Part shown: positions 3,491 through 17,145 of the stretch, piece by piece
Numbering within the stretch: the first letter of the stretch is position 1
How the letters are laid out: the number at the start of each line of letters is the position of its first letter
IMG/VR virus record: IMGVR_UViG_2579778652_000002
Location: 1-17,145 of that record
From: a virus
Taxonomy: Duplodnaviria > Heunggongvirae > Uroviricota > Caudoviricetes
Strand: one strand, 5' to 3'
Length of the DNA stretch: 17,145 bases
The notes under the pieces: model-generated
What the model was told of the DNA's origin: nothing
The model's input: only the letters and a program-made list of their open reading frames with translations
The model's database searches: none
Position numbers and translations under genes: made by a program

Positions 3491-4903
3491 TTACCAACCG
3501 GAGGATGAGGGAACGTATATTTCAGTTTCTTCGCGGACCAATGCCGGGCAATGCATACACATCATCAGCGCATCAGCCAGGTTAGGAGATGGAATACCGA
3601 GCTTCTGCTTCATTTCGACCTTAGTCATTAGCTCCAGCTTCCCGTTGTTATTGAATTTGCGCTGAATCTGCGTCAGTTCTGCAAACAGCTTCTCCAGCAT
3701 CTTCTCGCCTATCGCTTCTTTGTCGAAACTCAGCATGTCGTCTGGGTCTGCATACTCACCGTAAACAACCGCCCGATATGTCAGATACAGCCTGTCAGCC
3801 AGCGCGTAATAGAATTGCGCTCGCTTATTGCGGAACACATCACCAATAGTGCGAACGTTGTCGCCCTGTACGACTTCATCAGCCCATGCTCCGGCCTGAT
3901 ACGGCGCATCTTCATCGAATGGCGATTCACTGCCCTTGAACATCGTGGCGGTGATTTTCTTGCCGGAGAACGCTTCCGTTGTCTGTCTGCGTAGGCCCGC
4001 ACCGACGCCATCACCATCCCACAGGTAATGGTCAGCGCCGTCTTCAATCGCCAGCGAAGTAGCCCAGTCAGCACCCTCGTTGATGTCCATCAGCAGACCT
4101 TCGGCAATGCGCTTAACTACCGAACCGTGACGCGATGCGTAACCTTTAGCATCCGGTCCTGTATCTGACGGGTCATGCGCAGAGACAACCGCACCTTTCG
4201 CTTTCCATCCGAGTTTCTTGTGCGCATCGGTTGCAGCTTCAAGCCATTCACGTTTGATGATTGCCATATCACTTGCGCTCACTGGCTCACCAAGCCAGAT
4301 GTGACGATACAGTGTCGGATTTCTGCGTTTACACTCTTCCATCTCCAGACGGAGAACTTCAGGAAAATGCGGGTTGTCGGTGTAGTTCACCGTCAGCAGG
4401 CAAATATCATCAGGAGGATTTACGACGAACCGCTGATAGGTATCGTCGAGGATGTTTTTCGGGTTGAAGCTCACCCATATTTCGGAAAACGGCTTGCGGA
4501 TGGTTGGTATCAGGATGTCCCATGATTCCTTCGTTACCGCTTCCGCTTCTTCCACCCAGCAAATATCAATACCTTCGAGCGATTTAATCTTCGTCGGGTT
4601 GTTTTTTATGCCGTAGAACATGAATTCAGCATTCGTTCCGAGATGACGAATCATTGAACGTTGAATTTCAAACTCAGCCGAATACCCTTCCCGCTCGATG
4701 GTGTCTTCAAGCAACCGGATTACCGAATCACTGATACTGTTTTGCAGCTCGCGAGCGCAGAGAATACGCACCGGCTGCCGACGCGCCGCTTCAACAAGCA
4801 GCCTCGCAATTGCCCATGATTTACCGCTACCTCGACCGCCTTTGGCGACTTTGTAGCGATGCGCCTCAATGAACGGTTCAAAGATAGGATTAATCGAGGT
4901 CAT
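3491..4903 (-). CDS. Terminase large subunit (ATPase/nuclease)
   Basis: 470 aa; Walker A GGRGSGKS near N-terminus; start overlaps small terminase stop (ATGA); directly upstream of portal. Confidence 0.9.
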   Translation of the reverse strand: MTSINPIFEPFIEAHRYKVAKGGRGSGKSWAIARLLVEAARRQPVRILCARELQNSISDSVIRLLEDTIEREGYSAEFEIQRSMIRHLGTNAEFMFYGIKNNPTKIKSLEGIDICWVEEAEAVTKESWDILIPTIRKPFSEIWVSFNPKNILDDTYQRFVVNPPDDICLLTVNYTDNPHFPEVLRLEMEECKRRNPTLYRHIWLGEPVSASDMAIIKREWLEAATDAHKKLGWKAKGAVVSAHDPSDTGPDAKGYASRHGSVVKRIAEGLLMDINEGADWATSLAIEDGADHYLWDGDGVGAGLRRQTTEAFSGKKITATMFKGSESPFDEDAPYQAGAWADEVVQGDNVRTIGDVFRNKRAQFYYALADRLYLTYRAVVYGEYADPDDMLSFDKEAIGEKMLEKLFAELTQIQRKFNNNGKLELMTKVEMKQKLGIPSPNLADALMMCMHCPALVREETEIYVPSSSGW

Positions 4904-5340
4904 TTTCCGAATAGAGTGCTCATCGGTGATGTTTCAATCTGGATTGCGCCGCCGTCTTTACCTGTTAACTCGTGATCAACCTTGTCGCGCCATTTATCCT
5001 TCTGTCGGTTCTTAAGCCAGAAGATGGCAGCTGTTGTATCAGGCGGGTAATACTTCTCAAGCGGAGTTTCGACAATTCTGTTTTCAATAACACGAATATC
5101 GATGTCTGGAGCCACAAAGCCCATAGCGCGTTGATAAAGACGGTCACTAACTTCTGCATCAGCGACGGCCTTACCCTTTTTTATGGACTCCGAAAACTTA
5201 GGATAATCAAGCTTCCACTTGTTAATAGTTGACTCACTGACTTCAAAGAAATCAGCAAGTTCTGCATCGGTGTAGCCCAGCAAGCACAGTTTGCGTGCCT
5301 GTTCGGCATACGCCTCTTGATACTTTGTTGGGCGCGCCAT
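4900..5340 (-). CDS. Terminase small subunit
   Basis: 146 aa with N-terminal HTH-like segment (LGYTDAELADFFEVSESTINKW); immediately upstream of and overlapping the large terminase. Confidence 0.8.
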   Translation of the reverse strand: MARPTKYQEAYAEQARKLCLLGYTDAELADFFEVSESTINKWKLDYPKFSESIKKGKAVADAEVSDRLYQRAMGFVAPDIDIRVIENRIVETPLEKYYPPDTTAAIFWLKNRQKDKWRDKVDHELTGKDGGAIQIETSPMSTLFGK

Positions 5341-7952: not shown

Positions 7953-8350
7953 GCTCTACCCCTTCATTGAGGGGATTTGCTCTATTTAATTAGGAATAAG
8001 GTCGATTACTGATAGAACAAATCCAGGCTACTGTGTTTAGTAATCAGATTTGTTCGTGACCGATATGCACGGGCAAAACGGCAGGAGGTTGTTAGCGCGA
8101 CCTCCTGCCACCCGCTTTCACGAAGATCATGTGTAGAAGGCCGCAGCGTAACTATCACTGATGAATTCAGGATAGCCAGTGGCTACGGCTCAGTTTAGGT
8201 TGTGCTGTTGCTGGGCGGCGATGACGCCTGTACGCATTTGGTGATCCGGTTCTGCTTCCGGCATTCGCTTAATTCAGCACAACGATAAGAGCACTCGGTG
8301 CATTTAAGCCAAGCCCCATAAGGGAGAATGCTCTTACCTGTTGCACAGAT

Positions 8351-8410
8351 ATAAAAAATCCCGAAACCGTTATGCAGGCTCTAACTATTACCTGCGAACT
8401 GTTTCGGGAT
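8351..8410 (-). terminator. tR' late terminator (lambda-like)
   Basis: Minus-strand AUCCCGAAAC...GUUUCGGGAU hairpin followed by UUUUUUAU, matching the lambda tR' sequence as I recall it. Confidence 0.8.
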
Positions 8411-14892: not shown

Positions 14893-14955
14893 CTGTGGAT
14901 TGATCCAGTCTTTCTACATCAGGCCTCGAAGAATTCGCCGTTCTTCGGGGCTTTT
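14893..14955 (+). ncRNA. oop-like antisense RNA with strong terminator overlapping the cII 3' end
   Basis: Plus-strand hairpin GGCCUCGAAGAA-uucgccg-UUCUUCGGGGCU (14909-14939) followed by UUUUCUUUUG, antisense to the cII C-terminus, as for lambda oop; the 5' end and promoter are uncertain. Confidence 0.45.
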
Positions 14956-15200
14956 TCTTTTGTCAGGTAATCGGCAAGTCGCTTAGTCAGCTCAGCCATT
15001 TCATCGTCTTCGATTCCGTATTCCAGAACAGCCAGCATCATGCTTACCTGCGAGAAGAAACCATTCTTCCATCGGCTTACCTGATATTCAGGAACCCCCA
15101 TTGCTCGAGCGAATGTCTTCTGCCCCATCAGTGCCAGTTTGTTCAGCAAGGCTGACTCGATGCGAGCCGCTTTCTTGCTTTTAGTTGCAATAGTACCCAT
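14919..15200 (-). CDS. cII: CII-type transcriptional activator
   Basis: 93 aa; RIESALLNKLALMG ... QVSRWKNGFFSQVSMMLAVLEYGIEDDEMA, closely similar to lambda CII; AAGGAA RBS. Confidence 0.85.
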   Translation of the reverse strand: MGTIATKSKKAARIESALLNKLALMGQKTFARAMGVPEYQVSRWKNGFFSQVSMMLAVLEYGIEDDEMAELTKRLADYLTKEKAPKNGEFFEA

Positions 15201-15316: not shown

Positions 15317-15547
15317 TTAAGCGGCCATTAATTCAGGCCAGATGCTTTCCCAATCAACCGGATGAAGGTCTTTGCGAGTCACTTCACCATTGCTGAACTT
15401 CTCAATCAGAACACAAAGTGCTGCGCCCAATTCATGATTACGGCTAAGTGCTTTCCTCAAATAGCCGATAGAAGTTCCGCACTTGGTGGCAAATTCTCTC
15501 TGCTCTTCCAGTGAAAGGGAGTTCAGATACAAGCGGAGTTCTTCCAT
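15317..15547 (-). CDS. cro: Cro-like HTH repressor
   Basis: 76 aa; HTH (FATKCGTSIGYLRKALS); GGAAGGAG RBS; divergent from cI across the operator region and upstream of nutR and cII. Confidence 0.65.
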   Translation of the reverse strand: MEELRLYLNSLSLEEQREFATKCGTSIGYLRKALSRNHELGAALCVLIEKFSNGEVTRKDLHPVDWESIWPELMAA

Positions 15548-15655
15548 TTGCTATCTCCTTCCCGTTGTTGAATAAGATGAGTTTACCTGTAGGTAAAAAG
15601 CAAATCAATACCCATAGGTTATTTACCGGCAGGTAATCAAAGATAGAATTAAATC
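15548..15655. promoter_or_regulatory. OR operator region with divergent pR (toward cro) and pRM (toward cI)
   Basis: Palindromic operators TTTACCTGTAGGTAAA (15583-15598) and TTTACCGGCAGGTAAT (15622-15637). pR on minus: -35 TTGATT (15608..15603), 17 bp, -10 TAAACT (15585..15580). pRM on plus: -10 TAGAAT (15644-15649) placing the start near the cI ATG (leaderless, as in lambda). Confidence 0.7.
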
Positions 15656-16342
15656 ATGGATAAATACGAACAAAGACGACTAAGGCTGATAGAGATAAGA
15701 GACCGATTCTGTAATGGAAAGGCCTCAGAGTTGGCTCGTCGAATAGAAAGGGAACCATCATACGTTTCCAGAATGCTGTATCCGGAAGGAAAAAGCGGAA
15801 AAAAACGCATTGCTGACGATATGATGGAACTAATTGAAAAATCTTTTAATCTCCCACGCGGATGGATGGACATGCTTGCAGATGGTAAAGCTGGAGCTAC
15901 GGACCATCTTGAGTTTGCGGGTAACGTTCGTGCGGGTTTTGTTCCGGTAATTGGTGAAGCCGTTTTGGGAGTTGATGGCTCAGTGGATATGATTGAATTC
16001 AGATCCGGTTGGTTAAGCATCTACAGCGGCGATAAAGATGCTTACGGTCTGAAGGTTAAGGGTGACAGCATGTGGCCAAGGATTCAGTCAGGAGAATATG
16101 TTGTTATTGAACCAAATACGCCAGTACATCCAGGTGATGAAGTCTTTGTAAGGACCAAAGACGGTCACAACATGATAAAGATCATGAACAAAACAAGAGA
16201 CGGTGATTATCAGTTTAGTAGCATAAACAGTGATCACCGCCCAATCACTCTTCCTGTTGAAGAAGTTGATAAAATGCATTTTGTTTCAGCTATTGTGAAA
16301 CACACCAGGTACGTAGACCAGGACGATCTGCCAAAAGTTTGA
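15656..16342 (+). CDS. cI: CI-type prophage repressor (HTH plus S24 LexA-like peptidase domain)
   Basis: 228 aa; N-terminal HTH (ASELARRIEREPSYVSRML); C-terminal S24 motifs (KVKGDSMWPRIQSGEYVVI, MIKIMNK); divergent from cro. Confidence 0.85.
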   Translation: MDKYEQRRLRLIEIRDRFCNGKASELARRIEREPSYVSRMLYPEGKSGKKRIADDMMELIEKSFNLPRGWMDMLADGKAGATDHLEFAGNVRAGFVPVIGEAVLGVDGSVDMIEFRSGWLSIYSGDKDAYGLKVKGDSMWPRIQSGEYVVIEPNTPVHPGDEVFVRTKDGHNMIKIMNKTRDGDYQFSSINSDHRPITLPVEEVDKMHFVSAIVKHTRYVDQDDLPKV

Positions 16343-16356
16343 GGATAAAGCAGCAA

Positions 16357-16653
16357 ATGTTTATACCCGGCATAGTAGTCGCTGTTGTAATCATCTGCTT
16401 CATATGGGCAAAGTTATCTCCTGTAAGCTCTAAGCATACAGCTGAACTCATGAGGAAGAAGAATCTTATACATGAGGCAGAATCGATAATTAAAAAGTTC
16501 AAAGGCATGTCATACGACGACATGTCATCAGAGCAGATTGCTATGTATAAATGCGCCATTGAGCGCCTTGACTACTTAAACGGACTCAAACCCAAACACA
16601 CCCCAGTAGAATCAAAATTGCCGCAATGGCCAAGCAATCCAAATAGCTTCTGA
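16357..16653 (+). CDS. Small membrane protein co-transcribed with cI (rexAB-position moron); function unknown
   Basis: ATG at 16357, 15 nt after the cI stop (track ORF begins at TTG 16339); N-terminal TM FIPGIVVAVVIICFIWA then about 75 aa soluble region; followed by an intrinsic terminator; no domain I recognise. Confidence 0.6.
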   Translation: MFIPGIVVAVVIICFIWAKLSPVSSKHTAELMRKKNLIHEAESIIKKFKGMSYDDMSSEQIAMYKCAIERLDYLNGLKPKHTPVESKLPQWPSNPNSF

Positions 16654-16664
16654 CATCTCCTTTC

Positions 16665-16688
16665 AGCCCGCAAAGCGGGCTTTTTTAT
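16665..16688 (+). terminator. Intrinsic terminator ending the cI operon
   Basis: AGCCCGC-aaa-GCGGGCU followed by UUUUUUAU. Confidence 0.8.
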
Positions 16689-16703
16689 ATCAATCCAAAA
16701 AAT

Positions 16704-16800
16704 TAATTACCTGAAAATTCAAGCAGGTAAACTCTCACATCAATTTTATTTACCTACAGGTATAGACATGGGTTTTACCTGTAGGTATATTTTAAGCCAT
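16704..16800 (+). promoter_or_regulatory. OL operators and pL promoter
   Basis: Operators TTTACCTACAGGTATA (16748-16763) and TTTACCTGTAGGTATA (16774-16789), plus an atypical TTACCTG-N10-CAGGTAA (16708-16731). pL: -35 TAGACA (16763-16768), 17 bp, -10 TATATT (16786-16791), start near 16799 (ATCAGCAGG, as in lambda). Confidence 0.7.
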
Positions 16801-17130: not shown

Positions 17131-17145
17131 ATGGATGCACAAACA
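17131..17145 (+). CDS. N: Antiterminator N, first 5 codons only (continues beyond window end)
   Basis: AGGAG RBS then ATGGATGCACAAACA (MDAQT), identical to the lambda N start as recalled. Confidence 0.7.

Follow-up and report, generated by a model that had tools for sequence, protein, structure and literature searches.

A Conserved Split Operator-Like Element Upstream of pL in a Lambdoid Phage and Its Enterobacterial Relatives, a Candidate Counterpart of OL3

Upstream of pL in the lambdoid phage analyzed here, two inverted operator half-sites are separated by a 10-bp spacer, forming the split element TTACCTG-AAAATTCAAG-CAGGTAA (positions 16707 to 16730). Comparison with related loci shows that this element is real, selected, and linked to repressor specificity, and the description that suits it best is that of a split operator of the OL3 type that has been conserved. 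The reading that we favor, with a probability of roughly 0.55, is that selection has maintained it as a third repressor-binding element in OL, a counterpart of OL3 with an auxiliary role. It is a familiar phage switch element in an unusual variant of operator geometry. Our literature searches found no description of the split element, of mEp043 immunity, or of these operator sequences.

The 17,145-nucleotide stretch of DNA that was analyzed (referred to here as the window) has an immunity region that is 98.9% identical to that of Enterobacteria phage mEp043. Its layout includes cII (14919 to 15200) and cro (15317 to 15547), both on the minus strand, the OR region (15582 to 15637), and, on the plus strand, the cI repressor gene (15656 to 16342; 228 amino acids, with an HTH domain, a long linker, and an S24 C-terminal domain), a small open reading frame (ORF) of 98 codons after cI (16357 to 16653), and the intrinsic terminator of the cI operon (16665 to 16688, with the hairpin at 16665 to 16681), which lies 19 bp upstream of the A-rich box discussed below. 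The OR region, which consists of OR1 (TTTACCTGTAGGTAAA; 15582 to 15597), OR2 (AATACCCATAGGTTAT; 15607 to 15622), and OR3 (TTTACCGGCAGGTAAT; 15622 to 15637), defines the canonical operator of this phage, TTTACC-N4-GGTAAA. OL lies about 1.2 kb from OR. The preliminary description of this DNA had stated that two canonical 16-bp operators overlap pL, and this is indeed the case: OL2 (TTTACCTACAGGTATA; 16749 to 16764) overlaps the -35 element, and OL1 (TTTACCTGTAGGTATA; 16774 to 16789) occupies the region between the -35 and -10 elements and overlaps the latter. The promoter itself, TAGACA-N17-TATATT (16763 to 16791, plus strand; -35 at 16763 to 16768 and -10 at 16786 to 16791), matches the consensus in 10 of 12 positions, is the sole promoter found in a consensus scan of the window, and occupies the position annotated as putative PL in JQ182734. 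By homology with lambda, its start would be at about position 16799 (cATCAGCAGG). The N gene starts at position 17132, with a lambda-like nutL ahead of it.

Within the split element, the left arm, TTACCTG (16707 to 16713), is a half-site in the left-hand orientation and the right arm, CAGGTAA (16724 to 16730), is a half-site in the right-hand orientation, with neither being assigned a strand; the A/T-rich 10-bp spacer (16714 to 16723) is constant in length and varies in sequence except for the TCA at 16719 to 16721. Both arms match the phage's own half-site consensus and are inverted, as are the halves of a lambdoid operator. On a weight matrix derived from 64 canonical half-sites of eight lineages (median score of 10.7 bits, maximum of 13.0), the left arm scores 10.4 bits and the right arm scores 12.7 bits. 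Fused without the spacer, the arms form TTACCTGCAGGTAA, a canonical operator that occurs intact in relatives, which makes "the same half-sites with 10 bp inserted at the dyad" an exact description. That the half-sites are kept and lie 10 bp apart had been proposed in the preliminary description and can be read directly at 16707 to 16730; the interval of 16704 to 16731 given there encloses the element, with the extra positions being flanking bases. It is in spacing that the element departs from a lambdoid operator. The canonical TACC-N4-GGTA pattern is found in the window at OR1 (TACC at 15584), OR3 (15624), OL2 (16751), and OL1 (16776) and nowhere else (OR2 being an imperfect fifth copy), whereas TACC-N14-GGTA is found once in the entire window, at the split element.

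With up to two mismatches allowed, the split pattern is expected by chance 0.03 times per window, and just 6 of 200 shuffled windows yielded any match at this tolerance. The split element is not a chance match. Either arm could, in principle, be half of an operator with canonical spacing, but the respective partner positions score -8.3 bits or lower, so each arm pairs solely with the other. The 7-mer TTACCTG/CAGGTAA is present in 15 copies (versus 1.4 copies of TTACCTG in dinucleotide shuffles) and shares the top rank among the 7-mers of the window. Thus, a half-site by itself is not rare here, and the nonrandom part is the inverted pair, its location, and its spacing. Interpretation of the scattered TTACCTG copies as isolated half-sites was rejected, as many 7-mers reach at least 10 copies in the window. 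The density of TTACCT is 1.47 per kb in loci of the same specificity, operators counted, versus 0.55 per kb in heteroimmune loci; a rough subtraction of about six OR and OL copies per locus brings the former value down to about 0.6 per kb, so orphan half-sites do not look enriched. Two of the TTACCTG/CAGGTAA copies, at 8334 to 8340 and 8388 to 8394, are 54 bp apart in the 6S/tR' region between Q and S; lambda has the two copies as well (at 44738 and 44792), and they are therefore unrelated to this repressor.

Conservation of the element was assessed in loci that had been collected for their cI homologs and not for the element, and the count was limited to those with TACC-type operators and enough downstream DNA. 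Every such enterobacterial locus has the 10-bp spacer, with the TACC of the left arm 43 bp from that of OL2 and with OL2 and OL1 25 bp apart. The carriers are Escherichia coli, with 20 distinct OL-region sequences, three viral-contig lineages (cI identity of about 85%, 80%, and 78%), Cronobacter (83%), Pantoea allii (about 70%), and Hafnia alvei, whose cI is 54% identical and whose element reads ATTACCTT-ACTTTTCAGT-GAGGTAAT. The entire region is present at 97.4% identity or higher in 52 (about 1%) of the 5426 complete E. coli genomes. The genes that flank the element differ between lineages, and the element stays constant.

The same picture comes from IMG/VR. A scan with TTACCTG-N6-16-CAGGTAA alone proved uninformative, with only chance matches among those listed, and the surveys therefore relied on protein-anchored loci and context-anchored patterns. 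With gaps of 6 to 20 bp permitted, the gap was 10 bp in 55 of 55 OL-context matches, and in 53 of these 55 loci, 43 bp separated the TACC of the left arm from that of OL2. A second survey required the A-rich box, the left arm, and OL2 but left the right arm free; xxGGTAA followed a spacer of exactly 10 bp in 59 of the 65 homologous contexts, and the other 6 comprised five Ewingella-type sequences and a degenerate one. In an alignment anchored on OL2 and OL1 alone, polymorphism affects 1 of 12 arm columns, as opposed to 35 of 58 other nonoperator columns (Fisher P = 0.001). The 19-bp gap between the right arm and OL2 varies in 16 of 19 columns (in loci chosen with the arms in the search pattern), yet its length is nearly constant, and such a combination of free sequence with fixed length suggests that the helical phasing with OL2 and pL is constrained. 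The left-arm TTACCT is unchanged in all lineages that have the element. The spacer comes in about 20 variants with the consensus W5-T-C-A-R-N, none of which alters its length, and the right-arm variants CGGGTAA and TAGGTAA differ only in positions that are also variable in canonical operators.

As with operators, the half-site sequence at this location shifts with repressor specificity in heteroimmune relatives. In Yersinia prophages, whose operators are of the TACT-N4-AGTA type, the left-arm position is occupied by TTACTCA, and a canonical OL3, TTTACTCAAGAGTAGA, is found 21 bp after it. In the groups with TTAGC-N5-GCTAA and TTATC-N5-GATAA operators, the right-arm position is occupied by GCTAA or GATAA, which pairs with a weak left half (AATC) to form an OL3 of canonical spacing, and the far-left arm is absent. 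The preliminary description had suggested an atypical third OL site, perhaps a low-affinity or cooperative one or one that binds another protein, and the consensus-grade arms, retained together with their spacing down to 54% cI identity amid scrambled flanks, support the core of this suggestion; its reading of the element as a repressor site is likewise strengthened by the change of the homologous half-sites to TTACT, GCTAA, and GATAA along with specificity. In Ewingella-type variants, the left arm is present, the inverted right arm is gone, and a direct TTACC is found 21 bp downstream; this persistence of the left arm alone suggests that it may have a separate role.

Some relatives with the same specificity have OL1 and OL2 only and no split element. 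These include CharmingMan, whose cI has an N-terminal domain that is 80% identical and a different C-terminal domain, as well as the prophages of Paraburkholderia xenovorans and Stenotrophomonas. The absence of the element in these other contexts means that the split arrangement is not intrinsic to the DNA-binding domain. Judging from these comparisons, the half-sites change along with the repressor, and the split layout prevails within a single enterobacterial clade. The P. xenovorans LB400 prophage (locus L220, positions 3929 to 4925) has TACC-N4-GGTA operators in the same OR/OL layout and a repressor whose N-terminal domain is 64% identical over residues 1 to 72. The Stenotrophomonas sp. 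prophage (L221, 3927 to 5810) also has TACC-N4-GGTA operators in the same layout, with a protein that is 30% identical over residues 1 to 189.

The cI protein matches the Pfam domain Peptidase_S24 (E value of 1.4e-17) and shares 49 to 50% identity with its 933W and H-19B counterparts. Its AlphaFold model (mean pLDDT of 80) consists of four helices at residues 3 to 63 and a beta-domain (S24) at residues 95 to 221, connected by a predicted linker of about 30 residues (64 to 94) that has no secondary structure and a pLDDT below 50 at residues 76 to 90. Foldseek matches this model to lambda cI and LexA, and a PDB sequence search with cI matched no solved structure. The protein combines the HTH domain, the flexible hinge, and the S24 autocleavage/dimerization domain that are characteristic of the LexA/lambda cI superfamily.

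From the sequence, its statistics, its conservation, its covariation with specificity, and the predicted linker, we infer that cI or Cro binds the split element, that binding takes place in an extended mode, and that it has a regulatory consequence. In the proposed mechanism, the two inverted consensus half-sites, displaced by exactly one helical turn (TACC-N14-GGTA for TACC-N4-GGTA), would be contacted on the same face of the helix by the DNA-binding domains of one cI dimer, with the long unstructured HTH-S24 linker allowing both HTH domains to reach the arms; alternatively, the contacts could be made by a cI oligomer anchored at OL2 and OL1. Because the extra 10 bp amount to one helical turn, the arms lie on the same face, as they do in a canonical operator, about 34 Å further apart, and the strictly fixed spacer length suggests that both arms are read together by one complex. 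The element is located at about -92 to -69 from the predicted pL start, with the center at about -80, and at such a distance a bound repressor would not occlude RNA polymerase. Its role is probably that of cooperativity, looping, or antiactivation rather than occlusion: the element may steady the repressor on OL2 and OL1, it may steady the OL-OR loop that controls pRM, or it may serve to cover the promoter-distal A/T-rich region and so block activation from upstream.

A more detailed version of this mechanism is offered tentatively. It posits an S24 repressor that uses the compact N4 mode at the promoter-proximal operators and an extended N14 mode at the distal site, where it would clamp an A/T-rich TCA core, possibly the IHF/UP module of pL, so that repression would combine occlusion with antiactivation or looping. 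We know of no lambda-type S24 repressor that binds operators in two spacings one full turn apart.

Two features of the region fall outside this repressor-based reading. The A-rich box, AAAAAATTAA (16697 to 16706; 16697 to 16708 in the longer form AAAAAWWAATT), abuts the left arm and is found as AAAAAWWAA in every lineage, whatever its specificity. Lambda has this box as well, upstream of OL3 (AAAAAATAAATT, at approximately 35672 to 35683 of J02459; locus L241), where it begins at about -101 from the pL start, compared to about -102 in the window. The second feature is the TCA at spacer positions 6 to 8, usually inside WWTCAA, which is invariant in the approximately 20 spacer variants and is retained in heteroimmune relatives and in variants without the right arm. 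Both features are conserved across immunity groups and are not accounted for by repressor contacts. A host-factor site may overlap the spacer, in line with the different protein that the preliminary description had allowed for. The A-rich box may belong to a pL module with an IHF site or a distal UP element, and WWTCAA resembles the WATCAA core of IHF sites. An FNR/CRP-type site in the inner TGA-N4-TCA repeat was considered as well and rejected by direct reading on account of the wrong spacing.

These features underlie the strongest of the competing explanations, namely, that the region is a host-factor or promoter module like the one at lambda pL, with IHF and/or a distal UP-like tract, and that the half-sites merely flank it. 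In lambda, an IHF site and a distant UP element upstream of pL were reportedly found to be stimulatory in the work of Giladi et al. from 1992 and 1998, papers that are cited in PMC1874639 and PMC1784095. The lambda IHF/UP region has the same location relative to pL (about -70 to -105) and the A-rich box, and a WWTCAA core lies in the present spacer; however, the lambda region has no flanking repressor half-sites, and the match of the present core to the IHF consensus is imperfect. By direct reading, the window core ATTCAA-GCAG-GTA has an A/T-rich 5' flank and two mismatches to that consensus, WATCAANNNNTTR; several natural variants, with TATCAA or AATCAA followed by N4-GTA, are one mismatch away from it, but the cores in a viral contig (L148) and in Hafnia have three to four mismatches. 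The sharing of the A-rich box (in the form AAAAAWWAATT) and of WWTCAA by all immunity groups, and of the box by lambda at nearly the same distance from pL, would be natural for such a module. It leaves unaccounted for the consensus quality of the arms, their covariation with specificity, and their operator-like conservation, and we consider it unlikely as an explanation of the element. Under this explanation, either the arms are secondary or cI displaces the activator, and in the latter form it merges with the favored reading of a third repressor-binding element.

The main ligand of the element could instead be Cro or another phage-encoded protein, an option that the preliminary description had also raised, in which case the element would serve in early-lytic turn-down or would be the site of an accessory-gene product. 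Lambdoid Cro and cI proteins are well known to share operators, and the Cro of this phage is a small HTH protein of a different family, with a weak YdaS-like match. The sequence of the element offers no distinction between Cro and cI, and a lineage-specific accessory protein fits poorly with neighboring genes that change among lineages while the element does not. Cro is possibly a further ligand of the split element; as the principal one, it or an accessory protein appears improbable.

Another explanation derives the spacing of the arms from a weak cI-repressed promoter that points away from pL, with the arms serving as its -35 (TTTACC, bottom strand) and -10 (TAATTT) elements and a 16-bp promoter spacer setting the distance between them. 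Indeed, the bottom strand of the Pantoea-type relatives reads TTTACC-N16-TAATTT, and in several relatives a gene of 63 to 69 codons on the opposite strand, for which no promoter is recognized, begins 70 to 95 bp past the left arm. This gene, located on the minus strand with the cI operon on one side and the split element on the other, is found in loci L226 (5074 to 5280), L227 (5481 to 5678), L230 (5101 to 5292), and L239 (5830 to 6039), with a weak DUF2767 match in Yersinia. However, consensus scans for sigma-70 promoters, with -35 and -10 hexamers 16 to 18 bp apart, at least 9 of 12 consensus matches, and A2 and T6 in the -10 element, find none at the element in the window, L226, or L230. 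In E. coli and Cronobacter, the would-be -10 reads TAATTA, without the critical final T; the window, Cronobacter, and Hafnia do not have the opposite-strand gene; and L195 has the gene together with its upstream DNA but no left arm. We regard this promoter as quite improbable.

That the arms form a perfect canonical operator when joined, and that a two-operator OL works in the relatives 933W (PMC3317979) and CharmingMan, would also be consistent with a nonfunctional relic, either an OL3 broken by a 10-bp insertion at the dyad or two orphan half-sites paired by accident. Against such a relic, roughly a dozen lineages, with cI identities as low as 54%, keep the arms and their spacing next to 19 bp that are scrambled, and the spacer aligns without gaps to the heteroimmune OL3 region, so nothing points to an insertion. 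This makes loss of function highly improbable. Finally, the element could act as an RNA hairpin or a DNA cruciform with a 7-bp stem and a 10-nt loop, and the top-strand RNA has a predicted energy of -7 kcal/mol (z = -3.1), with arm variants (T-G, G-T) that would retain wobble pairs on that strand, but an element between the operon terminator and the pL start should be little transcribed, double compensatory changes are not seen, the Ewingella-type variants have the left arm alone, and the identity of the arms to the operator half-site would be coincidental, all of which makes this the least credible of the explanations considered. A search of Rfam with the element gave no match, and the stem is A/T-rich and is not followed by a T run, unlike an intrinsic terminator.

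Functionally, the closest known element is OL3 of lambda, which ranks third and weakest among the operators of a tripartite OL and acts through cooperative and long-range OL-OR interactions. Like the split element, lambda OL3 is promoter distal, lies upstream of OL2, has the same half-sites as OL1 and OL2, does not occlude the polymerase, and is flanked by the same A-rich box. It differs in being a 17-bp dyad located 20 bp, center to center, from OL2, whereas the split element is 38 bp away (33 bp in the canonical frame of the right arm) and so does not show the lambda-type placement, about two helical turns from OL2, that goes with alternate pairwise cooperativity. The closest precedent for the same palindromic half-sites at two spacings in one genome is Rhizobium phage 16-3, whose C repressor is reported to have operators of different geometries (Papp and coworkers, PNAS, 2002, as cited in PMC3694467). 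The operators of phage 16-3, ACAA-N4-TTGT and ACAA-N6-TTGT, differ by 2 bp and thereby in rotational setting, and both are reportedly proven binding sites. In the present phage, the difference is 10 bp, which would keep the rotational setting and add about 34 Å, and the split element is a candidate site. Flexibly tethered DNA-binding domains that reach variously spaced half-sites, the principle proposed here, are found in CytR and AraC; those proteins come from unrelated families and tolerate relaxed spacing, in contrast to the strict 10-bp increment of the split element.

Lambdoid switches are a textbook case of operator design, and, to our knowledge, all operators of any one well-studied phage have a single dyad geometry. 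Here, a clade of prophages that includes E. coli, Cronobacter, Pantoea, Hafnia, and viral-contig lineages retains a third site with perfect half-sites one turn further apart than usual. If cI binds this site, the flexible hinge of S24 repressors would serve a second, defined binding mode, and the clade would provide a natural system for the effects of half-site spacing on affinity and cooperativity. Binding would also bear on how 933W-type repressors achieve auxiliary or long-range control. Should cI not bind the site, the strong conservation would point to another constraint upstream of pL. The closest experimentally studied repressors, those of 933W and H-19B (Koudelka laboratory), likewise combine HTH and S24 domains and have two canonical operators over pL. 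[quoted passage not shown] The present clade differs from 933W in having the extra conserved split element.

Several other features of these loci deserve mention. OR2 and OR3 abut, with centers 15 bp apart and the two 16-mers sharing the base at 15622, while the respective distance in lambda is about 23 bp; the same OR layout of 25 plus 15 bp is found in the Paraburkholderia, Stenotrophomonas, and CharmingMan relatives. The product of the 98-codon ORF (16357 to 16653), which is cotranscribed after cI in the position of lambda rex, has an N-terminal hydrophobic segment and no match in Pfam; in relatives, this spot downstream of cI is occupied by other genes. Strong identity of the N/nutL region to HK633, HK446, Sf6, and others begins at approximately 16785 to 16795, inside OL1 and the pL -10 element, which marks the mosaic joint where the immunity module meets the N module; the matches to lambda in the N/nutL region are patchier. 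In three loci, an orphan TTTACCT is found 21 bp outside OR1, on the cro side (at about 2406 in L156, 3406 in L226, and 3415 in L230), and this direct spacing of 21 bp is the same as that between the left arm and OL3 in the Yersinia and Ewingella relatives. In addition, three or four direct copies of TTACCT are clustered about 1.5 kb upstream of cI in L156 (approximately 960 to 1045) and L151 (approximately 964 to 1033), within the replication-gene region, where they may be origin iterons that share the hexamer by chance.
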